Of a DNA stretch of 64,000 bases, positions 8,554 to 40,400 are shown in pieces. Under the pieces are notes generated by a model, which was not told the origin of the DNA, did no database searches, and saw only the letters and a list, made by a program, of their open reading frames with translations. The stretch is from a virus. Taxonomy: Duplodnaviria; Heunggongvirae; Uroviricota; Caudoviricetes. The stretch lies in the IMG/VR virus record IMGVR_UViG_2721755710_000007, positions 11,410 through 75,409 of that record; one strand, 5' to 3'. The translations under genes and the position numbers were made by a program. Position 1 is the first letter of the stretch. Every line of letters begins with the position of its first letter.

Positions 8554-9243
8554 TCATAAATCTGATAGCCACTTACTATCTATGGACTCAATCTCCGTCA
8601 GCGGAATTGATGGGAAAAAATATCCCTGAGCGCCCCATAGCCCTATCCCTTTTGATAACTTATGACAATCAATGTTTTCGACGCCTTCAGCGATGATATT
8701 CGGACATAACTTTTTTAAATTGCTAATAATGACATCAAAATGAGGCTTAATCATATGCTCTTGAAAAAATGACTTATCAAGTTTTATTGCATGATATTTA
8801 TTTTTAATTAATGCTTTCATGGTGGCGTTACCACTTCCAAAATCATCAAGCCAAACATTATCTGTCAAAGTCAGTAGAAAGGATATGACGTAATCCTCAT
8901 CGCTTAAATCAGGATAGTTTTCTGATATCTCAATCGCTATAAATTTATTGTTTATTAGTAGTTCTTGAATTTGTTTATTGCCATATATATATAAACAGGT
9001 ATCATAATCTACATTGATAGAGCATAATATATTATGGCATTCAAAAAAACACTTATATTTGATTATTGTGTTAAGTTGAGATTTTAGCAAGTTAATCTTC
9101 ATCTTGCTTGTAAATATACCTAATACTTTCTGAGTAGAAAGAATAGCCCCCTCGTTGGAATAAAATCTGCTCAACACTTCCACTGCTATCAACTTGTTAG
9201 TGCTTGTGGAAATGATTGGTTCTACTATGTAGATAACTTCCAT
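8554..9243 (-). CDS. EAL-domain protein (c-di-GMP phosphodiesterase-like, possibly degenerate)
   Basis: 229 aa with EVLSRF, EISE, DDFGSG, KLDKSF, EGVE, QGY motifs; AT-rich. Confidence 0.6.
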   Translation of the reverse strand: MEVIYIVEPIISTSTNKLIAVEVLSRFYSNEGAILSTQKVLGIFTSKMKINLLKSQLNTIIKYKCFFECHNILCSINVDYDTCLYIYGNKQIQELLINNKFIAIEISENYPDLSDEDYVISFLLTLTDNVWLDDFGSGNATMKALIKNKYHAIKLDKSFFQEHMIKPHFDVIISNLKKLCPNIIAEGVENIDCHKLSKGIGLWGAQGYFFPSIPLTEIESIDSKWLSDL

Positions 9244-9464: not shown

Positions 9465-10198
9465 ATGGTGGTAGCTATGTCAGGAGTCTGTTACTTCATC
9501 CTAATAAAGAAACCGATAAATTTTCAATTTCTTAAGGATTTCTTAATATTAAATTATGGTGATGTGCTGTTGCTTAAACATTCTGAACGCGAATTCTTAC
9601 AAACCTATTCAGATAAATATATCGAATTCGAACTTAATGATAGTGCCGTAAGAAACTATTTATCTTGTCACAATCACCAAGGGAAGCAACTTCTGGATAA
9701 ATGCCCACATTTGCTAAAAAAGTCTTTTGCTTATCCTGATTTATTAATCAGGATGATCGATAATATAAGTGACCAGAATCATATACATCCTGATTTTAAG
9801 GATGCTTTAACTTTTTCATTACTTTCAATTTTTAGTGATGTTGACAACCTTAGAGCTTTTCTTAAATCTGGTATGCCTACTTTCTCAGGGAAAGTACGCA
9901 GCATATTTCTTTCAGATGTATCTAAACATTGGAAACTAAGAGACTTAACTGATTATCTATACATAGTGAGAGTTTAATAAAGAAAAAACTCTTATTAGAA
10001 AACACCTCCTTCAGTAAGTTATTACTTGATACACAAATGGCTTTTGCTATTAAATTACTAAAGCAAAACCGCCCCCTCAAACAAGTATCAGAAAGTTGTG
10101 GTTTTAGTAGCATATCGTACTTTGTGTGCCTATTTAGGCAGTATTATAATTGTACACCATGTGAATATGTAAAACATCAGTTATCATCTGGGAAATAA
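9465..10198 (+). pseudogene. AraC-family transcriptional regulator, frameshifted
   Basis: 170-aa N-terminal ORF, then in another frame a C-terminal HTH (LKQVSESCGFSSISYFVCLFRQYYNCTPCEY) ending at 10198. Confidence 0.5.
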
Positions 10199-10955: not shown

Positions 10956-12887
10956 TTATGCGTATTGTTGGATGACGGCCAGAACGTCCGCCACGTTGTG
11001 TTTTGTCTCGATAATCCACCAGTTGCCCGGGAAATCGCTGTTCTTCGCCTTCGCTGGCAGCCAGCGAGCGCCGAATTTTTCCTTGATTGCGTCTTTAGCA
11101 CGGAAAAGAACGCCTTTCATGCCGGACGCCTCCTGAAGCCCAAATACCTCACCAGCGGCGAATTTTGGTGCGTACATCATCTTCAGGTCGGCGGTGGATA
11201 CGCGATAATTCAGACCAAGAGACTGAGCTATGCTGGTGGCATCACCCTGTATTGATGATAACTCTTCTTGTTTCTCGTTTCTGGCGGCAATTTCTTCCTC
11301 CGTGATGTTGCCTAGGGCCAGGTTTATCCGATCAGCGTCGGCCTGTTTCTCTTCATCGGTGCGCCCGGCAAGAACCGTGTTAATTCTCTGCAATATCTCA
11401 ACATGATTCTTGCGCATGCTAAGCAATTCCGGCGTAACCTCGTTAAGGTCCACCAGCCCAAGGATGGCAAGGTCGGAAAACATTGATACCAGGTTGTAGG
11501 TCATGCGATAGCTGAGTTGCCCATAGGCTGATGGCAACTGCACCGCATCCATTTGATAGGCATCCATAAATTTAGAGCCGTCGTTTACGACATCCGCAAT
11601 TGCCGGTGTGATTTTCCCTGTGGTGGCGGCCTCCCTGATTGCTGTTACCCACGATTGAGTCAGCGCGGCGACTGCATGATTCAGATTGGCTTTCCGTTCT
11701 GCTGCAATACGCGCGCTTGCAGCGTCCATTGCCTGCTTGATCTCGTCTTTATTGCTGTAAATGCCAATGGTGCCAAACTGTGCTGTGGTGATCTCATAAT
11801 CTGACGCCCGGAACTCATGGGTACCGAAAATGGCATTGGTGACCTCAAGTTCAGAATCCCCGTTACGAGTAGCCCCCTGGCTTGTTTTCTCCGGCATTCT
11901 GGCGATCGCATCCGCTATTGTCTCCTGAATTGCTTCAGGGGATAGCGTATCTCCGTATGACGCGATTACTTCGCCATAATTGGAGCCAAACAGTTCAGTC
12001 AGGAATACTTCTGCCAAACGGACCTGGCGGTTATTCCCTTCCGACATCATACCAAGCACCCATTTTGCAATTGACGACTTCAGCGCGCCGTCACGGCGAT
12101 CCGGGTAAACCGCATGCTTCAGTGGGTCCGTATAGGTACCAACAAAATCAATGCTATAGCCTGACTCTGTAGTCTGAACGCCGTATGAGTCAGTGATTTT
12201 GATCATGCCGCGCTGCTGGAAACGGTAGAAATCGTCACAGGAAATGATGTCGTTAATCCCGGCGATGGAGACGCCACCACTGATTTTCTGCATAACAGCA
12301 TCTTCATCGGGAGTTACATCCACCTGTTTATCCAGCGTCTTCACATCCCAGTTACCCGATTTGGTGCCTTTGAAGGTAAAGATGATCTCCACGTCTGCGC
12401 GCTGGCTGTCGAAGTCCAGCGACTTAATGCGAACGATATCACCGGCACAATCGTAGTATTGGCCTACACGCCATGAGCGATCGCCGATAACAAGGAACTC
12501 ATTCGCATGGTTAACCAGATCAGGATCAACATCCAGAATGCCTTTATTTATTGCATCCTCCACCAGCGGGCGCAGGCGTTTGATATCCGTCGCGGCCTTC
12601 TGAGTACGGTTCAATAATTTCTCATAGCGGGAGATGGCTTGAGTGATATTAGCCTTGCGCTGAATGGCGCTTTTCAACGACGCGCGATAATGTGCTAACA
12701 ACGTACGGTCTGTGTGATGGACGCTACCCCAGCGGGCCTTCCAGTCTGCATTATCAGCTGCTTTGGCCATTAACTGGAGTGCCATCAGTACCAAGAACAG
12801 GAGCACCTCCCACGCTAATAGACTGGCCCCCTGAATCTCACCGTTCTGAAACCACAACAAAAAAACATCAGGAATAAAAAACACCAC
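10956..12887 (-). CDS. hypothetical large protein (up to 643 aa), first gene of operon; true start probably internal (Met codon at 12785 or 12770)
   Basis: Long ORF; codons 17-23 are encoded by an IS2 IRL remnant so the annotated N-terminus is doubtful; no Walker or methyltransferase motifs seen. Confidence 0.5.
   Translation of the reverse strand: MVFFIPDVFLLWFQNGEIQGASLLAWEVLLFLVLMALQLMAKAADNADWKARWGSVHHTDRTLLAHYRASLKSAIQRKANITQAISRYEKLLNRTQKAATDIKRLRPLVEDAINKGILDVDPDLVNHANEFLVIGDRSWRVGQYYDCAGDIVRIKSLDFDSQRADVEIIFTFKGTKSGNWDVKTLDKQVDVTPDEDAVMQKISGGVSIAGINDIISCDDFYRFQQRGMIKITDSYGVQTTESGYSIDFVGTYTDPLKHAVYPDRRDGALKSSIAKWVLGMMSEGNNRQVRLAEVFLTELFGSNYGEVIASYGDTLSPEAIQETIADAIARMPEKTSQGATRNGDSELEVTNAIFGTHEFRASDYEITTAQFGTIGIYSNKDEIKQAMDAASARIAAERKANLNHAVAALTQSWVTAIREAATTGKITPAIADVVNDGSKFMDAYQMDAVQLPSAYGQLSYRMTYNLVSMFSDLAILGLVDLNEVTPELLSMRKNHVEILQRINTVLAGRTDEEKQADADRINLALGNITEEEIAARNEKQEELSSIQGDATSIAQSLGLNYRVSTADLKMMYAPKFAAGEVFGLQEASGMKGVLFRAKDAIKEKFGARWLPAKAKNSDFPGNWWIIETKHNVADVLAVIQQYA
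12819..12839 (+). mobile_element. 21-bp IS2 left inverted repeat remnant
   Basis: TAGACTGGCCCCCTGAATCTC identical to the IRL of the intact IS2 at 19645; similarity stops after 21 bp. Confidence 0.6.
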
Positions 12888-14780: not shown

Positions 14781-17700
14781 TCAGAAACGATATTCCACAC
14801 TCAACATGGCAGATGTATTATGGTATCCATGTTCTCCAAGTTGAATGCCTGCATCAGCCCGGAATGCTACTTCTGGTGTTATCATTCCCACAACACCACC
14901 ATTTATTTCTCCGATATCACGCGCACCATCCTGGTATATACTTACACCATTCATACTGGTGCCGAAAACACGACTATTGTGCAACCAGTGTGCCTCCACA
15001 AATGGTCTGAACGGAACCGCATACCGCGTATTTTTACCGTTTTTGCTGGTAAGCCATGTTCTTGCTCCCAGGCGGGTGAGAATATTTCCGTTACCGGTAT
15101 TTTCAATACTGGTTCCGTTACTTTCATGATATTTGTCTGATTTTACATTCATCCGGACAACCTGAAGCTGCGGCTGAACATACCATTCATGACTTCCCTT
15201 GTAATTGTCGGTAAACTCTCCAGCCTTCCATGAATATCCTGCTTCCAGAGATACCGTAAACCCTTTTGACTTCCATGACTCAGCAGGCAGCCGTTCTCCA
15301 TTTATATGATTATCAAACCAGCTGTATTGCAGCCAGCTATCAAGATAAGAACCATTGTGTGTTTCATCATTGGCATACCATGTTGCATAAAGACCCGCTG
15401 TGTATCCATTCATTCTTCCTTCCGAATGGTATCCGGTGCTCAGGGCATTCGTACTGTTATTATTATGACCATAGCCAGCCATCATACCTGTATGCCAGCG
15501 ATCGGTACCATTCAGGCTCCACTGAGCTATATCTCCCCCTATTAACACAACGTAGCTATTCCCCCGGGTTCTCAGCTGACTACTGTTGTCACGCCAGCGA
15601 TTATGTTTTCCTTTATTATACATCCAGATACCTGCTTCATTTTCTTCTCCTGTCATGTGGCTGATATACAACTCCTGTCCCTGTCGTTCATACAGATTCG
15701 TTACAAACAGATTATTTGCAGCAGCAATACTGGCAACATAGCTACCTGCCTCAGGACGCAAATTATTATCATGGTTTTCCGGTACAGCTTCAGGTTGTGG
15801 TACAGGAATGTCTTTTCTGCTAATCAGATACCAGTTAGTGCTGTTAATCCCCTGACCACGTTTCAGTATGTAATCATAAGCTCCGGCTGTAATACGTTCC
15901 GTCTGAATGAATTCAGCATTATCAGCATTGCCACTGACGTGAATCACTTCAATCCCATTAAGTGTCTCTGCACCAGTACCACCGGCCTGAGTAACAGCGA
16001 CACGGGTACGGCCACTGGCATTACCTTTAATCACCAGACGATCTGTTTTCGAATTGTCACCACCTGTTTCTGTCTGGAGGAGAATAAGTCCATTTCTGCC
16101 AGTGTAATTCCCTCCGACAGTCAGTATATTACCCGGCATATATGTAGTGAGATCGACTATACCACTATTGCTCAGATTTCCTGCAACGCCCCCAAACCCG
16201 GAGAGTTTGCCCTGCTCTTCAACAATGACCTGGTTACTGCCGAGCATCACCGGTGAATCTGCGTTCCCCAGTATCACTGTCCCCTGAATAATATCTGTCA
16301 TCCCGGTCCATTTTGCGTTATCGCTAATGTTCAGTGCACCTGCTCCCGTCTTGCGAACATTACCATAACCACTGATATTGTTGGTAAGCTGCCATGCTGA
16401 TGTACTGTTCAGAGTTAATGTGCCATAGTTATCAACAAAGGCTGTCCCCAGATTATCAGCCGTGGATACAGCCAAATGAGCCCCCTTATTCACGGTAAAA
16501 ACACCGGAAAAATTACGATTATTACCCGTTATATCAAGCATTCCCCCATTTATGTTCAGAGAACCATCCCCTGCAATAGTACCTGCAGATTCTCCTCCAT
16601 TATTCAGTATCAGGCTTCCGCCATGAATGTTCAGCACAGAGCCTGCAGCCGTCAGTAGTTTGCTTATTGTCTGAGGATACCCATTCATATCCAGTTCTGC
16701 GCCACGGGATAAATATAAATACTCAGTCCGACCAAGAGCATCAGGTGCAGCAAGAATTAATACGCCAGATTTAACCTCTGTATTTCCTGTATAATTGTTT
16801 GTTGCAGAAAGTATAAGAGTACCATTACCTGATTTTGTCAGACTTTTGCCGTCCCAGCCATCATATAATAAAGGTGAAAGATTATCGGAAAGAGAAACAC
16901 CTATGTTCAGAGTGGCATCTTTTTCTATATTAAAGGTTCCATATCCCATGCCTTTTGTATTATTCCATCTCAGCATGGAGATCAGTTTGTTATCGTCGTC
17001 ATTTAAAGACGTATAAACATAACTTTCAGCACCTTCTGTCAGTAATACATTGTATTGTACAATGTGACTATTATCAGCGATCGAGATACCTGTGTCTGAC
17101 GACAATAATGTGTAATAGTCCTGAGTCCAGTTCTTAATTGATGTGTCTATATTAAGCCATGAATCACTTTTTAATGTAATAGTATTTGCGTGAACATTAG
17201 CATTTCCTACAGACAGGTTCATAGATGCGTCTTCATCAATACTTATATTTCCGTTAAAAATGGAGTTCTTGCCTGACAGATAAACAGATGAGCCATTCCC
17301 AATCATTAGCCCACCATTAATTGCTGTTGCGTTATTGATGTTTTTAATAATTAATTCATTTGTACCATTAACAGGTATACTAGCTAGTTTAATATCACCA
17401 TTAATCACAGAATCTGAATAAATATCTAATGAATTATACCCGCCAGAAAAAATTATTGATGTATTATAAGCATCTTTTTGGCTATTATATAATCCTGAAA
17501 GATTACCATGATTATTAATATGGATATCTTCTCCATAAACAGAGCAACCACCGTCGGGGCCATATCCCCCCTGAACAATACCGTTATTATTCAAAGTGAT
17601 TTGATTTCCAGAAATAGCATCTCCCCCTTGTTTTATTCCATATCCTCCAGATATCATGTTGTCGTTAGTAATGAAAAGATTACTACCATTAATACCATCA

Positions 17701-18278
17701 CCACCGTTTACGCCATTACCGCCCAATATTCCTCCGGAATTATGCACTGTAATATTGCTACCGGTTACACCGGAACCACCTGTCCCACCTACATCATCAC
17801 CTCCGTATATACTTCTGTAATTATCAACTATAATATCATCCCCGCTTAACCCTGCACCTCCGCTACTTCCTGAGCCACCAAGACCATTACCCCCATATAC
17901 ATTTCTGTAATTGTTTATAGATATTTTGTTGCCACTAACAGCAATTCCACCATTATATCCATCTCCTCCCCAAACACTACCATTATTATTTAGCGTAAAG
18001 TTTTCACCGTAGACACCTGCACCACCGATTGATGTATTGCTTGTTCCTCCTTTGATGTTAATACTGCTTTCAACAGATAGTATATTTTGAGTATAACTTG
18101 TTTTATACGGCACGCTGATATTAAGCGCCGCGTTTCCATCAACACCTGTAATACTCCTGGTTATACTTTTAGGTATACCATTACCATTCAGTTGTATTGT
18201 TTGCGCACCAGAAAAATGAGACTGCACAGAATAAATTATACTGACCAGAAATTGTAAAATTCGTATATTCTTATTCAT
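14781..18278 (-). CDS. autotransporter adhesin (AIDA-I/TibA/Ag43-like)
   Basis: 1165 aa; signal peptide, glycine-rich ~19-aa passenger repeats, C-terminal beta-barrel ending ...SVEYRF; AT-rich. Confidence 0.75.
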   Translation of the reverse strand: MNKNIRILQFLVSIIYSVQSHFSGAQTIQLNGNGIPKSITRSITGVDGNAALNISVPYKTSYTQNILSVESSINIKGGTSNTSIGGAGVYGENFTLNNNGSVWGGDGYNGGIAVSGNKISINNYRNVYGGNGLGGSGSSGGAGLSGDDIIVDNYRSIYGGDDVGGTGGSGVTGSNITVHNSGGILGGNGVNGGDGINGSNLFITNDNMISGGYGIKQGGDAISGNQITLNNNGIVQGGYGPDGGCSVYGEDIHINNHGNLSGLYNSQKDAYNTSIIFSGGYNSLDIYSDSVINGDIKLASIPVNGTNELIIKNINNATAINGGLMIGNGSSVYLSGKNSIFNGNISIDEDASMNLSVGNANVHANTITLKSDSWLNIDTSIKNWTQDYYTLLSSDTGISIADNSHIVQYNVLLTEGAESYVYTSLNDDDNKLISMLRWNNTKGMGYGTFNIEKDATLNIGVSLSDNLSPLLYDGWDGKSLTKSGNGTLILSATNNYTGNTEVKSGVLILAAPDALGRTEYLYLSRGAELDMNGYPQTISKLLTAAGSVLNIHGGSLILNNGGESAGTIAGDGSLNINGGMLDITGNNRNFSGVFTVNKGAHLAVSTADNLGTAFVDNYGTLTLNSTSAWQLTNNISGYGNVRKTGAGALNISDNAKWTGMTDIIQGTVILGNADSPVMLGSNQVIVEEQGKLSGFGGVAGNLSNSGIVDLTTYMPGNILTVGGNYTGRNGLILLQTETGGDNSKTDRLVIKGNASGRTRVAVTQAGGTGAETLNGIEVIHVSGNADNAEFIQTERITAGAYDYILKRGQGINSTNWYLISRKDIPVPQPEAVPENHDNNLRPEAGSYVASIAAANNLFVTNLYERQGQELYISHMTGEENEAGIWMYNKGKHNRWRDNSSQLRTRGNSYVVLIGGDIAQWSLNGTDRWHTGMMAGYGHNNNSTNALSTGYHSEGRMNGYTAGLYATWYANDETHNGSYLDSWLQYSWFDNHINGERLPAESWKSKGFTVSLEAGYSWKAGEFTDNYKGSHEWYVQPQLQVVRMNVKSDKYHESNGTSIENTGNGNILTRLGARTWLTSKNGKNTRYAVPFRPFVEAHWLHNSRVFGTSMNGVSIYQDGARDIGEINGGVVGMITPEVAFRADAGIQLGEHGYHNTSAMLSVEYRF

Positions 18279-18325: not shown

Positions 18326-19231
18326 CTATATTTCCAGACACCTGTTATCACTTAACCCATTACTGGCTTGCTGCCGTAGATATTCCCGTGGCGAGCGATA
18401 ACCCAGTGCACTATGCGGATGCCATTCGTTATAATGCTCGAATGCCTCTGCAAGGTTCTTTGCTGCCGTTAACCCGTCTGGTTTGGGCATGACACTGATG
18501 TAGTCACGCTTTATCGTTTTCACGAAGCTCTCTGCTATGCCGTTACTCTCCGGACTCCGCACCGCCGTGTTCTTCGGTTCAAGCCCCAACATCCGGGCAA
18601 ACTGCCGTGTTTCATTAGCCCGGTAGCATGAACCATTATCCGTCAGCCACTCTACTGGAGACGCCGGAAGCTCGTTGCCGAAACGGCGTTCCACCGCTCC
18701 CAGCATGACGTCCTGTACTGTTTCACTGTTGAAGCCGCCCGTAGTGACCGCCCAGTGCAGTGCCTCACGGTCACAGCAGTCCAGCGCGAACGTGACTCGC
18801 AGTTTTTCTCCGTTATCACAGCGGAACTCGAACCCGTCAGAGCACCATCGCTGATTACTTTCTTTCACAGCCACTCTGCCGGTATGTGCCCGTTTCGATG
18901 GCGGTACAGCGGGTTTTCGCTCAAGCAACAGCGCATTCTGGCGCATGATCCGGTAAATACGTTTGGCATTGATCGCAGGCATACCATCAAGTTCGGCCTG
19001 TCTGCGAAGCAGCGCCCATACCCGACGATAACCATACGTGGGCAGCTCTCCGATAACATGGTGTATACGGAGAAGCACATCCGTATCATCTGAGTGACGG
19101 CTGCGGCGACCATCTTTCCAGTCATCGGTTCGTCTGAGAATTACGTGCAACTGCGCACGCGACACCCGGAGACAACGGCTGACTAAGCTTACTCCCCATC
19201 CCCGGGCAATAAGGGCGCGTGCGCTATCCAC
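18326..19231 (-). CDS. insD: IS2 OrfB transposase
   Basis: 301-aa IS3-family integrase-core ORF. Confidence 0.9.
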
Positions 19232-30898: not shown

Positions 30899-31699
30899 AT
30901 GCAACAAACATTCAATGCGGATATGAATATATCAAACCTTCATCAAAATGTCGATCCTTCCACCACTCTGCCCGTTATTTGTGGTGTTGAAATTACGACC
31001 GACCGCGCTGGCCGTTACAACCTTAATGCTCTACACAGAGCGAGCGGACTCGGTGCCCATAAAGCGCCAGCTCAATGGCTAAGAACGCTGTCAGCCAAAC
31101 AGCTCATCGAAGAGCTGGAAAAAGAAACTATGCAGAATTGCATAGTTTCGTTCGAAGGCCGTGGCGGCGGCACTTTTGCCCATGAATTGCTCGCAGTGGA
31201 GTACGCTGGTTGGATTTCTCCCGCGTTTCGGCTGAAGGTAAACCAGACATTTATCGACTATCGCGCTGGAAGATTACAACCTGCTATTCCGAAGAGCCTC
31301 CCAGAAGCTCTCCGTTTGGCTGCTGACCTGGCAGAGCAAAAGCAACGGCTGGAGCAAAAAATGCTGATGGATGCACCTAAAGTCGAATTCGCCGAACGCG
31401 TTGCTACCGCCAGCGGGGTTCTAATCGGCAACTATGCCAAAGTGCTCGGCCTGGGCCAAAACTATCTCTTCACCTGGTTGCGTGATAACGGAATTCTGAT
31501 CGCAACCGGTGAACGCAGGAACGTCCCCAAACAAGAATACATATCCCGTGGGTATTTCACCCTTAAAGAAACCGTGATCGATACAAGCAATGGAAGCAGG
31601 ATTTCTTTCACGACTCGTATAACCGGCAAAGGTCAGCAGTGGCTGATGAAGCGATTGCTTGATGCTGGTGTGCTGGTACCTGTCGCGGCAACGCGCTAA
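30899..31699 (+). CDS. kilA: KilA (KilA-N domain protein)
   Basis: 266 aa; position upstream of repL and P1-matching length. Confidence 0.75.
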   Translation: MQQTFNADMNISNLHQNVDPSTTLPVICGVEITTDRAGRYNLNALHRASGLGAHKAPAQWLRTLSAKQLIEELEKETMQNCIVSFEGRGGGTFAHELLAVEYAGWISPAFRLKVNQTFIDYRAGRLQPAIPKSLPEALRLAADLAEQKQRLEQKMLMDAPKVEFAERVATASGVLIGNYAKVLGLGQNYLFTWLRDNGILIATGERRNVPKQEYISRGYFTLKETVIDTSNGSRISFTTRITGKGQQWLMKRLLDAGVLVPVAATR

Positions 31700-31728: not shown

Positions 31729-32574
31729 ATGCTGGCTAAAGTCACTTTCCTGAGCTGTATAACGATGAGCGATTTTACTTTTTCTGGCTATGAATTGGCC
31801 TTCTTTGTAACACACTCCGGTCTATCCCGTAGCGCCGGGCATATCCTGTCGCAATGTGCAAATCTCGCGGCAACAACCAGTGAATACTTCATTCACAAGC
31901 CCCACCGCCTGATCGCGGCAGAAACTGGTTATAGCCAATCAACCGTCGTTCGTGCATTCCGTGAAGCTGTAAACAAAGGAATTCTATCTGTAGAGATTGT
32001 TATCGGCGATCACCGTGAACGTCGCGCTAACCTGTACCGGTTTACACCATCCTTTTTGGCCTTCGCACAACAAACCAAAAATGCGCTGATTGAAAGCAAA
32101 TTAAAGATCTCTTCAGCGGCAACCAAGGTTAAAGCTGTTCTCGCTAAGACATTGGCTTTATTTGATTTTTTATCCACACCCCCATGTCAAAATGATACCC
32201 CCTCCCCCTGTCAGGATGACGTGGCAATAAAGAATAAGAAGTCACAAGTTAAAAAAACAAAAAGATCAGTTTCCGGCGGTGCCGGAACGACCAGACTCAA
32301 AAAATTGACTTCATGGATCGCTGAGGCAAAAGCAAAGGCTGACAATCTGCGGTTATCCAAAAAACGCGCTCAAAAACATGAGTTCAAGCAGAAAGTAGAG
32401 GCGGCTGCGCGGAAATATGCTTACCTGAAGAACAAGCGTTCGCCTGATATTGGCGGGATATCAAACTTCGATAATCTACCGCATTGCATGACGGTAAACG
32501 AAGCTCTTAATGCGGTTTTAGCCAAAAATAAAGATAACGAAAAATGGGGTATACCGGCAGGATTCAGGGGGTGA
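31729..32574 (+). CDS. repL: RepL lytic replication initiator
   Basis: 281-aa ORF directly downstream of kilA, matching P1 repL length. Confidence 0.8.
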   Translation: MLAKVTFLSCITMSDFTFSGYELAFFVTHSGLSRSAGHILSQCANLAATTSEYFIHKPHRLIAAETGYSQSTVVRAFREAVNKGILSVEIVIGDHRERRANLYRFTPSFLAFAQQTKNALIESKLKISSAATKVKAVLAKTLALFDFLSTPPCQNDTPSPCQDDVAIKNKKSQVKKTKRSVSGGAGTTRLKKLTSWIAEAKAKADNLRLSKKRAQKHEFKQKVEAAARKYAYLKNKRSPDIGGISNFDNLPHCMTVNEALNAVLAKNKDNEKWGIPAGFRG

Positions 32575-32624
32575 TAGATTGCTCTAATCTGGAGTCACCT
32601 GGCGTTTTCAGTTTGAGGTCGGAG

Positions 32625-32870
32625 ATGCAATCTGATTTTTTACAGTTAGCGATCGCTTTTGCAGGATATGTTTGTATTGGCTTCTGTGTATACATGATCA
32701 GCCGAAAAATGCTTGTCGATATCTACCGCAAAGAACGAGCAGAGGAGATCTTAGTATGGATTTTCTTTGGCGCGGTCTGGCCATTAGGGATCATGTTTGC
32801 TGCAACATTTCTTCTGATGTGGATATTCACCCTTCCAGGTGATTTCTATAGAAAAAAAGCCAGACATTGA
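32625..32870 (+). CDS. small membrane protein
   Basis: Two hydrophobic helices; preceded by an operator half-site ATTGCTCTAAT at 32578. Confidence 0.35.
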   Translation: MQSDFLQLAIAFAGYVCIGFCVYMISRKMLVDIYRKERAEEILVWIFFGAVWPLGIMFAATFLLMWIFTLPGDFYRKKARH

Positions 32871-33561
32871 TACAATCGTTGCGGGTGCTTGAGGCTATCT
32901 GCTTCAGGCATGACCCGAAAAGCAGATAGAAGAAAGCCCCAGATAACATTACGCGTCCTGCAAGACGCTTAACATTAATCTGAGGCCATATCTATGCTTA
33001 GCATACGTAGATTAGCCTCTTACCGACCAAAAGGTCAAGGAGAAGCAGGCTATGAAGCAGCAAAAAGCGATGTTAATCGCTCTGATCGTCATCTGTCTAA
33101 CCGTCATTGTGACGGCACTGGTAACGAGGAAAGACCTCTGCGAGGTACGAATCCGAACCGGCCAGACGGAGGTCACTGTCTTCACAGCCTACGAATCTGA
33201 AAGGTAAGAGACCTGGCGGGGAGTGATCCCCGCCACTCTTCGTGTGTCTGGTAACCTCAATGCACCCTTTTCTCCCCAATAGTGTAAAACACAATGAAGT
33301 AGAAGGAGTTATTTCACATCATGCAAAGATTCAGACCATATCTCCCAATAGCCTTCGCGACATGATGACTTTCAGAAATATCTAGCTGTTAACAAAATTC
33401 CATACTTGCTTTGCTAATACCACCTAGATTATATATGGAAAAATACACCTAAAACTTAAACAAATTATATCCACAACAAACATCCATCTATTAGGATTAA
33501 AATTAATTTAATAATAAATAATACAACACCGGTTCATTTTCTAACAAACCGGTGGGCACCA

Positions 33562-34632
33562 TTATTGGAATAACTTACTGATTACATTAAAAACATTAAG
33601 GGCGTTACTTGCCACACTAGACATCTTGGCTGAATTTTTTTCGATTGAGTCAAGAACACTTTCGACTTCCGATAAAGTTCTTCTGCTATCTGCATCTTTT
33701 CCTGAGTCTATCGCATCTTTAATTGCAGATATAGCAGACTCTAAATTCTCCTTAAACTCACCTGTCGTCTCATCCTTCAAGAGAAGTTCTAACTCTTGTT
33801 TAAGTTTTTCCAATGATGCTCTTTTCTCATCAGTTTTACTAATCTTCCCTGAATAACTGACACAAACACATTCTCTTTTATTGCAGACAGGACAACCATT
33901 TAGATAATAACTTTCAAACGCCTCGCCAAGATCATCATCTTTAAAAATAATCCCCCATAAAGAAAACAACCAAGCATATATATCAGCACACTCTTCATGA
34001 AGATTTTCTTTGTTGTAATTTTTATCTTCAATTGATTTAGCATAAGCCTCTTGCAACTCACCCAACTCTTCGAATAACCTGGATGAATGATAAAACCCAC
34101 CAAAAGTAGACCAAATGGTTCTATTCGACGGATAGATGTCATTAATCATTCGTGGCGCATAAGGCGGAAATTGCATAGGTTTAATAGCGTTATATTTATT
34201 GAAAAGCTCATCTTTAATTCCTTTTGCGCTTCTTATTTTCTCTGGCTTTCTGTGTGTTTGAGAACAGGAACAAGGCGCCCCTAAGCAATAAGGACAGCAA
34301 CTAGGAAATTTTTTATAAAATGCTTCCTGTGGTTGTATTTCAAGTTTATCACAGATTGCAAAAAGCCAAGACAATGCTTCTATATAGGTATTTTTTAATA
34401 ATTCTTTATCCTGATTACCATCACGAATAAACTCACGTGTTAAATAAGCTGTTTTCCTTGTCAGATAAGAGTACATATACTCAAATGATTTTTCTTCATT
34501 TTTTTTGCTGTAAATACCTACAATAATATTGCTCATATCATTGATACGTAACATGACATTCCTCTTAAATAAGCCAATACTTCCTAGAACCATATATGTT
34601 TCGACAAAGATTAACGGACATCTTGCCTTCAC
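33562..34632 (-). CDS. MazG-like nucleotide pyrophosphohydrolase-domain protein with two Cys clusters
   Basis: 356 aa; EELGELQEA ... EECADIY motif; CCPYCLGAPCSCS and CPVCNKRECVCV; AT-rich. Confidence 0.5.
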   Translation of the reverse strand: MKARCPLIFVETYMVLGSIGLFKRNVMLRINDMSNIIVGIYSKKNEEKSFEYMYSYLTRKTAYLTREFIRDGNQDKELLKNTYIEALSWLFAICDKLEIQPQEAFYKKFPSCCPYCLGAPCSCSQTHRKPEKIRSAKGIKDELFNKYNAIKPMQFPPYAPRMINDIYPSNRTIWSTFGGFYHSSRLFEELGELQEAYAKSIEDKNYNKENLHEECADIYAWLFSLWGIIFKDDDLGEAFESYYLNGCPVCNKRECVCVSYSGKISKTDEKRASLEKLKQELELLLKDETTGEFKENLESAISAIKDAIDSGKDADSRRTLSEVESVLDSIEKNSAKMSSVASNALNVFNVISKLFQ

Positions 34633-34851
34633 AAACTTTGACGCTACATAAATTTAACCATGTGCATACTAAATATTTAAGGTAGAAAAGTATAGGAGTA
34701 TTTATTAATAGGTAACTGTTAGTTTACACTCACTTCATACCAGAGTATTTACAAGATGTTATTTTACTCTATTCGCTAGGCGGTGGAATGCGGTTGTATC
34801 AAGGGGAGGTAAACCTCCCCCGAAGAAGATTAAAAGTACAAGGGATAACAC

Positions 34852-35361
34852 TTAATCCCACTCAATCCAGTTGTAGACGATACGAAGTGACGGGCGCACA
34901 GCGGCAGTCACATCTTCGGTACTAAAGTCGATTGCATCACTGTAGATTTTGCAGTCCAACATTTCAATTGTTGTAGCAGCTTTTGTCACAGCGTTAACCC
35001 CGGAAGATTTGGATTCAGGGGTAGCAGCCATCGTGATATCAACATAGTCCTTCGCCGCAATGCGATCTTTAATGAACTGAAGAATATCGCCTTCGATAGT
35101 CTCCACGCACTGGACCTGGATTTCCCCAGAGTTTCGAATTGGACCGTGCTGGTTGAACTTCACACCATTCGGACCATAGTCCTCCACATCCTCGCGGGTC
35201 ATTTCAGGAATTTGCGACGTGCGAACCAGTACGCTGATATCTTCATGGCCTGCAAAAGTGAGCTGGAATTCAGAAGATACCAGTCGTTCGCCTTTGGCCG
35301 CGTTGGCAGTATAGCGGCCCTTAATAAATTTACGGTTTCCCTTAGTGTTATTGTGCCCCAT
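34852..35361 (-). CDS. phage structural protein (169 aa)
   Basis: ORF in minus-strand morphogenesis array. Confidence 0.4.
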   Translation of the reverse strand: MGHNNTKGNRKFIKGRYTANAAKGERLVSSEFQLTFAGHEDISVLVRTSQIPEMTREDVEDYGPNGVKFNQHGPIRNSGEIQVQCVETIEGDILQFIKDRIAAKDYVDITMAATPESKSSGVNAVTKAATTIEMLDCKIYSDAIDFSTEDVTAAVRPSLRIVYNWIEWD

Positions 35362-40192: not shown

Positions 40193-40230
40193 GGCACTTG
40201 TGTGAATCCCTTTTCGGAAGAGATTTTATT

Positions 40231-40400
40231 GAAAGTCACTTGTTGACTTTCTCGCTAAAAGTAATTTTTTAAATTTTTTGTGCGGGGGAGGGGGGCAAGT
40301 AAAACAGGCGTGAAACCGTGGGAATTTCAGTCTGAAATTTTTCATGAATATCTATATATATCATATATTTATACATGAAATAGACGCGGGACATTTTAGA
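40231..40400. other. parS-like centromere region
   Basis: Downstream of parB; perfect palindrome GAAAGTCA-cttgt-TGACTTTC at 40231-40251 and ATTTCA/TGAAAT heptamers. Confidence 0.35.

Follow-up and report, generated by a model that had tools for sequence, protein, structure and literature searches.

In the all-alpha nucleoside triphosphate (NTP) pyrophosphohydrolases, five acidic residues bind Mg-triphosphate, and in MazG superfamily members such as SSO3215 (1vmg), AF_0060 (2p06) and YpjD (2gta) the corresponding EExxE...ExxD motif is carried on a helical hairpin. Escherichia coli MazG (3cra) consists of two tandem units, only one of which forms a fully active site. These enzymes have classically been tied to house-cleaning, in the account of Moroz et al. 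(2005) as it is cited in PMC9503650. A part in phage-host conflict is documented for Atd1, a MazG catalytic domain from Pectobacterium phage PcCB7V that was chosen for its nearness to phage anti-defence genes, and that acts as a phage MazG-like pyrophosphatase which alleviates TIR-STING toxicity and depletes guanosine tetra- and pentaphosphate, (p)ppGpp (10.1101/2022.06.09.495361). Nucleotide-depletion defences employ a dCTP deaminase or a dGTPase (10.1101/2021.04.26.441389); in PUA-Calcineurin-CE-HAD systems the place of the effector is in rare cases taken by a MazG-like domain, which is predicted to be an immune effector (10.64898/2026.01.15.699771); and DefensePredictor counts MazG domains among its predicted, unvalidated defence domains, with a MazG plus MazG-C kinase protein as an example. 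Here we analyse a gene for a MazG-like protein of 330 amino acids, located at positions 33562-34554 on the minus strand of a 64,000-nucleotide stretch of caudoviral DNA (positions 11,410 to 75,409 of IMG/VR record IMGVR_UViG_2721755710_000007; hereafter the window) that belongs to a P1-like phage-plasmid.

Conserved sequence features lead us to place the window protein, as a divergent member, in the all-alpha NTP pyrophosphohydrolase superfamily, with an activity that we infer. Our favoured reading, which we put at somewhat short of an even chance, is that it is a prophage-borne, nucleotide-targeting, stand-alone immune-type protein carried as accessory cargo of the phage-plasmid. A defence-type gene is favoured by the combination of residence on temperate elements only, fusion of relatives to immune-type domains, restriction-modification and CBASS (cyclic oligonucleotide-based antiphage signalling system) genes beside relatives, a two-transmembrane (2-TM) partner in one subfamily, and the defence-like cargo of the slot that the gene occupies.

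Like the window protein, Atd1 is a phage-borne enzyme of the MazG superfamily, and it has been implicated in phage-host conflict; the family described here is set apart by its description, being tandem, equipped with Cys knuckles, distributed over temperate elements and chromosomes, and linked to defence, and the window protein does not share the Atd1-like profile of a single MazG domain encoded in a phage near anti-defence genes. The logic proposed below is that of the nucleotide-depletion defences, in which one protein removes (deoxy)nucleoside triphosphates, (d)NTPs, and thereby halts phage DNA synthesis, whereas the enzyme superfamily and the architecture differ and PUA or HAD partners are absent. 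The MazG plus MazG-C kinase of DefensePredictor is likewise unlike the window protein in architecture. The RefSeq entry for the window protein, WP_000944483, was found neither in the literature searched nor in the DefensePredictor supplement, and the literature on MazG in connection with defence, TIR, CHAT or phage-plasmid hotspots contained nothing describing its family.

Gene boundaries and protein architecture

The mechanically delineated open reading frame (ORF) spans 33562-34632 on the minus strand and gives a product of 356 amino acids from a GTG at 34632, the length assigned in the original prediction for this DNA. The ORF stands, and its translated part is shorter: inspection of the sequence revealed no ribosome-binding site ahead of the GTG, while a Shine-Dalgarno sequence, AAGAGG, is located at 34561-34566, 6 nt before an ATG at 34554, and RefSeq annotates on an identical plasmid a 330-residue 'MazG-like family protein' (WP_000944483.1). 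Because of this Shine-Dalgarno site and the RefSeq call, ATG 34554 was chosen as the start. The N-termini of homologs line up with the ATG-initiated form in an alignment of 24 homologs (A1), and full-length homologs have 329-342 residues; given these N-termini and the GTG without a ribosome-binding site, the 5' extension of the ORF (34555-34632, minus strand) is probably an untranslated leader that includes the Shine-Dalgarno sequence. The stop codon occupies 33562-33564. Beginning 8 nt past it, at 33527-33554 on the minus strand, a terminator scan and the sequence itself reveal an intrinsic-terminator-like hairpin with a 12-bp stem, CACCGGTT...AACCGGTG, and then a T-rich tail.

Throughout alignment A1 the pattern IY-x3-N ... 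FE ... (S/A)W ... CPxC-x4-CxC occurs twice per protein, and an hhalign comparison of one half with the other (probability 94%, E = 1.2e-7) points to an internal duplication. The sequence thus describes a single-chain pseudo-dimer of two MazG-like units, each with a four-cysteine knuckle. The first, degenerate half (residues 1-82; 34309-34554, minus strand), delimited from A1, hhalign and the structural model, keeps IY..N, FEY and SW and lacks the acidic metal-binding motif; in the AlphaFold2 model its helices comprise residues 4-19, 24-44, 50-70 and 75-82, at a predicted local distance difference test score (pLDDT) of ~90. It leads into knuckle 1, C87-x2-C90-x4-C95-x-C97 (CPYCLGAPCSC; 34264-34296, minus strand; A1), in which C87 and C90 are conserved in all 157 sequences that cover these columns, C95 in 156 and C97 in 155. 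The second half (residues 133-216; 33907-34158, minus strand) has its acidic residues intact, with E162, E163, E166, E188 and D191 encoded within 33982-34071, and is followed by knuckle 2, C221-x2-C224-x4-C229-x-C231 (CPVCNKRECVC; 33862-33894, minus strand; alignments A1 and A3), whose cysteines are found in 168-169 of 175 sequences, the remainder being gapped at those columns.

The motif EELGELQEA ... EECADIY, originally recognised as MazG-type, is therefore present with its acidic residues conserved: the five are invariant in A1, are found in ~155-160 of the 175 family sequences and, together with the eight cysteines, reach ~90-100% conservation in that set and near-invariance in an alignment of 117 sequences. 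Since the second unit alone keeps the acidic residues, one active site is predicted. Both of the Cys clusters that had been proposed to bind metal are also there, conserved enough for metal sites, and probably bind Zn; they are not separate features, as each forms the tail of one copy of the internal duplication. The C-terminal region (residues 241-330; 33565-33834, minus strand), earlier taken for a coiled coil, is modelled as a four-helix bundle (helices 241-259, 262-284, 287-307 and 312-329; pLDDT 58-85) and is variable in sequence across relatives. As a whole, the AlphaFold2 model is all-alpha (pLDDT 82.8; predicted template modelling score 0.72), less confident in the C-terminal bundle, and has the all-alpha four-helix core fold of MazG, HisE and the dimeric dUTPases. 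No transmembrane segment is apparent in the window protein, the maximum Kyte-Doolittle hydropathy over 19 residues being 0.96.

Placement in the superfamily was judged by several comparisons. The EExxE...ExxD motif is found as E162-E163-x2-E166 ... E188-x2-D191; the phage family phrog_2245 (NTP pyrophosphohydrolase) matches the window protein at E = 4e-6; and a profile of the family matches 1vmg in the Protein Data Bank (PDB) at E = 1e-4 and, more weakly, 2p06, 5ie9, 2gta and 2q73. The window protein itself stays below the threshold of the Pfam MazG profile PF03819, which two homologs pass (P0159 with 29.1 bits, P0142 with 27.1 bits), and two more (P0011, P0016) carry precomputed PF03819 assignments. 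Dimeric dUTPases and E. coli MazG rank among the top non-significant Foldseek matches. Relative to the dimeric dUTPases (Staphylococcus aureus phage Dut 5myd, Campylobacter jejuni 1w2y and the trypanosomatid enzymes) the window protein shows 7-8% identity, no match to Pfam dUTPase_2 and Foldseek scores that are not significant. It differs from the MazG superfamily at large in its extra C-terminal four-helix bundle, in a first unit with none of the metal-binding acidic residues, and in having relatives fused to TIR, CHAT, deaminase, GGDEF or kinase domains. To our knowledge, a CPxC-x4-CxC knuckle ending each unit is not known from characterised MazG proteins, and we know of no counterpart of the Cys knuckles, the C-terminal bundle or the immune fusions in 1vmg, 5myd, 1w2y or 3cra.

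The wider family and its domain fusions

A word-indexed protein search retrieved 28 homolog clusters, and its repetition with the 117-sequence alignment returned 30 proteins, one of them new; an exhaustive profile search yielded 993 representatives at E <= 1e-3, 101 of them at E <= 1e-30. Genome scans place the family in Pseudomonas, Vibrionaceae, Chloroflexota, Acidobacteriota, Bacteroidota, Alpha- and Betaproteobacteria, Patescibacteria and one archaeon, and the same 330-residue architecture is encoded chromosomally in Pseudomonas, Aliivibrio and Celerinatantimonas. Short forms of ~220-240 residues without the C-terminal bundle also exist.

Relatives that share the module at E-values from 1e-71 to 1e-19 are fused to TIR (nine proteins), cytidine/dCMP deaminase (five), GGDEF (four), CHAT (four) and Ser/Thr kinase (three) domains and, in one sub-threshold case, to PNP_UDP_1. 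The deaminase and kinase domains are N-terminal in the fusions, while GGDEF, CHAT and TIR lie C-terminal to the module; in some relatives the C-terminal bundle is swapped for CHAT or GGDEF, and in others it precedes TIR. The EEEED pentad is kept in all four GGDEF, all four CHAT and all five deaminase fusions and in most TIR fusions. A subclade (P0109, P0121, P0122 and P0132) has REKDD in place of EEEED and retains both Cys knuckles; judged by these residues, this form of the module probably binds without catalysing.

Genomic neighbourhoods of the relatives

An all-against-all BLAST comparison of the genes neighbouring 30 genomic loci (numbered L) revealed no neighbour conserved family-wide, which is consistent with a self-contained system. 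Individual loci have neighbours that match defence genes, namely a Type III methyltransferase (L031, E = 4e-166) with a Res-like gene on the opposite side, HsdR (L036, E = 2e-181), a Type IIG enzyme (L021, E = 2e-249), the CBASS E1-E2 protein Cap2 (L035, E = 3e-200), a GajB/DRT-like helicase (L043, E = 1e-108), a PD-T4-6-like kinase (L024, E = 1e-89) and an IetS-like protease (L026, E = 2e-34).

The closer relatives, with 32-79% identity, reside on temperate elements. Three occupy the S-V accessory slot of P2-like phages (L010, L011, L069), two lie at prophage ends beside tail-fibre or integrase genes (L005, L064), and three are in lambdoid early regions (L007, L065, L070). One is in the int-cI region of a P2-like prophage, beside a DNA methylase and a gene for 267 residues that are possibly a restriction-modification pair (L067); another adjoins a 1,234-residue reverse-transcriptase protein (L068); and in a third the gene is inverted with respect to the lambdoid early operon and has large intergenic gaps around it (L066). 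In a collection of 50,697 phage genomes no relative was found in a lytic phage, and the sole match was a Vibrio inovirus, a filamentous phage, with the gene in cargo position.

A subfamily of ~54% identity, from Pantoea and Pectobacterium genomes and from lambdoid and P2-like prophage contigs, is the only one with a partner gene: it is always accompanied by a downstream gene for 245-248 residues, which was seen at L007 (11068-11805), L008 (11080-11826), L009, L060 (5187-5921), L064 (9077-9823), L065 (9069-9806) and L070 (9069-9806). In the product, a long non-hydrophobic centre lies between transmembrane-like segments at the two termini; it has no convincing Pfam or PADLOC match, and from this layout the product may be the membrane effector of a two-gene variant of the system. 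No remnant of this partner was detected in the window by tblastn.

A homolog of 35% identity (in the region L012, 3769-10311) lies directly downstream of nrdA-nrdB, which encode ribonucleotide reductase, and is followed by a 177-residue ORF that by eye resembles a tyrosine transposase associated with repetitive extragenic palindromes. This link to nucleotide metabolism may be coincidence.

The repL-bplB cargo slot of the phage-plasmid

The gene has a GC content of 0.341, compared with a window mean of 0.467 (standard deviation 0.046 in 993-nt windows) and with 0.46 and 0.50 in its flanks, which bears out the earlier remark that it is AT-rich relative to its neighbours. It is the sole coding content of an AT-rich insertion of 1,539 bp (33280-34818, GC 0.339) defined by composition and by blastn junctions: homology to phi456 stops at 33279/33280 and restarts at 34819, the 1,539 bp standing where phi456 has ~11 bp, and homology to P1 DNA ends just past repL and likewise resumes at 34819. 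The suggestion that the gene is an acquired moron thus holds in the form of an acquired cassette. No meaningful direct or inverted terminal repeats flank the insertion.

In the surrounding P1-like backbone, kilA (30899-31699) and repL (31729-32574) lie on one side, and minus-strand bplB (34852-35361), followed by pmgG, 21 and 22, on the other. The gene had been placed next to the lytic replicon; this is loosely true, as repL ends at 32574, and a small ORF and a hok/sok module intervene. The small ORF (32544-32870, plus strand; 108 residues mechanically, 81 in RefSeq) overlaps the end of repL, encodes hydrophobic, possibly membrane-spanning stretches, has no PADLOC match, and is common to phi456-type elements and absent from P1. 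The hok/sok type I toxin-antitoxin module is complete (32883-33207, directly left of the insertion), with a sok RNA at 32883-33057 (Rfam RF01794, 113.9 bits) and a hokD-like ORF at 33052-33207; it is shared by the window and phi456 and absent from P1. On NZ_LR883966.1, an otherwise identical plasmid, the insertion sequence IS421 (IS4-like) is located between hokD and the MazG-like gene (L002, 3482-4820), and the blastn segments around it overlap by 12 bp (window 33219-33230), resembling a target-site duplication. IS421 was considered as the source of the cargo insertion and rejected, as it represents a separate, later event.

Copies with at least 99.7% identity to the cassette occur on 16 PLSDB plasmids and in 18 complete E. 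coli genomes, on plasmids every time. The P1-type bplB-pmgG backbone is present in 707 of 5,426 complete E. coli genomes (~13%), so 18 of ~707 P1-type elements (~2.5%) carry the cassette, which is a rare accessory gene of these elements. It follows from this low frequency that the gene is dispensable for P1 biology.

The same interval holds different genes in different phages: rlfA-rlfB-pmgF in P1, only hok in phi456, and an unrelated gene in RCS47. The latter encodes a 198-residue hypothetical protein without a PADLOC match (NC_042128, 57771-58367; L063, 2653-3249) and adjoins a transposase gene. The original prediction had singled out rlfB of P1 for comparison. BLASTP of the window protein gave E = 12 with RlfB and E = 2.7 with RlfA, and with similarity at neither the protein nor the DNA level, identity with either is ruled out; the cassette replaces the rlfA-rlfB-pmgF cargo and does not correspond to it. 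RlfA and RlfB (P1 NC_005856, 51740-52908; L003, 3320-4488; equivalent window slot 32589-34818) share the repL-bplB cargo slot with the window gene and are unlike it in being two genes on the opposite strand, RlfA being a DUF3800 protein. In the annotation of P1 they are 'possibly associated with lytic replication'. Both match the PADLOC defence candidate PDC-M04 (subunit A at 1e-95, subunit B at 1e-51), which the window protein does not match, and by these profile matches the classic rlf genes of P1 may be a defence system instead of replication factors. The PDC-M04 matches support a view of the repL-bplB interval as a defence-cargo slot.

The late operon 23-22-21-pmgG-bplB is on the same strand, and the cargo gene lies at its 3' end, set off from it by two hairpins. 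A GC-rich one (GGGGAGG-TTTA-CCTCCCC; 34803-34820, minus strand) lies ~30 nt 3' of the bplB stop, across the cargo junction, and may be a partial terminator that divides the late operon from the cargo gene; the terminator scan placed a second, weaker terminator-like site at 34842-34859. In a sigma-70 scan, hits were no more frequent than in shuffled sequence and none fell in the leader at 34555-34851, and neither a C1 operator nor an LP23-type late promoter was found within 33200-34900, LP23 itself being located at 40223-40241. The annotated 'P1pmgF' promoter of P1 was placed by hand at 34833-34865, on the basis of the P1 annotation and the blastn junction; its spacer measures 21 nt, so it was not relied on. 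Ribosome-binding site and terminator are both supplied within the cassette itself.

Two further AT-rich islands are present in the window. In one, with GC <0.38 over ~8.0-10.5 kb, a 229-residue protein (8554-9243, minus strand) has by eye EAL-domain-like motifs (EVLSRF, EISE, DDFGSG, KLDKSF, AEGVE), and an ORF of 170 residues (9465-9977, plus strand) adjoins its gene. The other comprises a 1,165-residue protein (14781-18278, minus strand) that by eye is autotransporter adhesin-like (Gly-rich repeats, C-terminal F) and an adjoining 301-residue ORF that by eye resembles an IS transposase (18326-19231, minus strand); the adhesin-like island looks like further non-phage cargo of the phage-plasmid.

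Proposed function and alternatives

As a stand-alone immune-type protein, the MazG-like protein would be expressed from the plasmid prophage and would hydrolyse a nucleotide, in the simplest case (d)NTPs to (d)NMPs and pyrophosphate, alternatively a nucleotide that appears on infection. By this hydrolysis a superinfecting phage or a rival element would have its replication starved or blocked, and the C-terminal bundle would serve regulation or oligomerisation; in relatives the module would be coupled to a second domain that kills or signals (TIR, CHAT, deaminase, GGDEF or kinase) or to the 2-TM partner. The deaminase fusions could fit a dCTP-to-dCMP-to-dUMP route. Because relatives have immune fusions and defence neighbours, the gene is more likely to guard the lysogen against other phages than to counter defences of the host. 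A more far-reaching version, which we regard as possible and hold with less conviction, is that the family constitutes a widespread, so far unrecognised immune module, the stand-alone form of which temperate phages (P1-, P2- and lambda-like as well as filamentous) trade for superinfection exclusion by nucleotide pyrophosphohydrolysis; its active site would sense or destroy an infection-marking nucleotide, and the module would be wired alone, to the 2-TM partner or to fused effectors.

Several observations weigh against a defence role. The window protein matches no model in PADLOC-DB v2.0.0, scores 14.5 bits (E = 0.045) with PF03819 against a gathering threshold of 22 bits, and gave nothing significant in Foldseek searches of the PDB and of viral BFVD models. 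A strong defence-model neighbour is present at ~7 of the 30 loci and is unambiguous at ~4, a raw count without a matched background rate, and the PADLOC models concerned at L043, L024 and L026 (UvrD-type helicase, kinase and subtilase) also match housekeeping paralogs. Ordinary signal transduction, too, typically involves GGDEF and kinase fusions, and the REKDD subclade, without catalytic residues, hints at binding rather than hydrolysis as the core role. Constant dNTPase activity would be toxic, which means that a trigger would be required. Finally, the scan found no convincing sigma-70 promoter upstream of the gene, which, together with its position at the same-strand 3' end of the late operon, makes late lytic expression possible and would suit a function that benefits the phage. 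(The sole PADLOC hit, to LmuB at E = 0.018, fell on the helical C-terminal region and was treated as noise.)

Such a function is counter-defence, the role suggested in the original prediction, which we consider doubtful. The substrate would be a nucleotide with which the host signals immunity or stress, for example (p)ppGpp, a cyclic oligonucleotide or a product of TIR domains, and its hydrolysis would enable the P1-like phage to establish itself or to replicate where the host has an abortive-infection system; P1 is reportedly subject to mazEF-mediated exclusion. The setting of the gene agrees with this, as it directly follows the late operon in the same orientation, lacks a detectable strong promoter of its own and has the lytic replicon ~1 kb away, but the distribution of the family does not: the family is absent from the lytic phages among the 50,697 genomes, where the inovirus is the sole match, the same 330-residue architecture recurs on the chromosomes of Pseudomonas, Aliivibrio and Celerinatantimonas, and at L066 the gene runs against the phage early operon. 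Atd1 offers a precedent as a phage MazG-like pyrophosphatase (10.1101/2022.06.09.495361), yet the tandem units, Cys knuckles and bundle are unlike its single-domain type, and no close structural relative was found among viral protein models. The TIR, CHAT and deaminase fusions, the restriction-modification or CBASS neighbourhoods and the 2-TM partner of one subfamily further speak against counter-defence.

Improbable in our estimation is a purely regulatory role as an immune sensor, in which the module would bind, and perhaps slowly hydrolyse, a nucleotide that reports infection and would then switch an output, namely the fused domains, the 2-TM partner or, in the stand-alone form, either an unlinked host factor or the protein's own C-terminal bundle. 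Input domains usually lie N-terminally, as the module does relative to GGDEF, CHAT and TIR, but the deaminase and kinase domains are N-terminal themselves and so not in output position. The degenerate first half keeps Y15, N19 and W63, which possibly shape a ligand pocket, and the REKDD subclade and the conserved 245-248-residue partner fit sensing too; against this, the catalytic pentad is present in >90% of members, which argues that turnover matters, and the stand-alone form, the window gene included, has no recognisable effector. A house-cleaning enzyme or dUTPase analogue that would tune the nucleotide pool for phage-plasmid replication, with no part in conflict, has little chance of being right, despite the classical association of the superfamily with house-cleaning and the location of lambdoid prophage copies between the replication genes and Q, because just 18 of the ~707 P1-type elements carry the gene, Pfam dUTPase_2 is not matched and chromosomal relatives lie in defence neighbourhoods, and the rarity and build of the gene make a plain housekeeping or dUTPase role unlikely.

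Implications

Were the protein to act in counter-defence instead, it would be an unusually elaborate enzyme common to phages and chromosomes. If the favoured reading as a defence gene is true, the MazG/all-alpha pyrophosphohydrolases, a superfamily for which no immune role has yet been validated, would provide a defence mechanism and join the deaminases, dGTPases and calcineurin-HAD systems in nucleotide-based immunity. The gene would then be a compact, single-gene example of 330 residues that is native to E. coli and directly testable, and the TIR, CHAT, deaminase and GGDEF fusions would give a handle on the nucleotide cue that these proteins read. The repL-bplB interval of P1-type phage-plasmids would be marked as a slot for defence cargo and, since P1-type elements occur in ~13% of complete E. 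coli genomes, would be of relevance to phage therapy and plasmid ecology.

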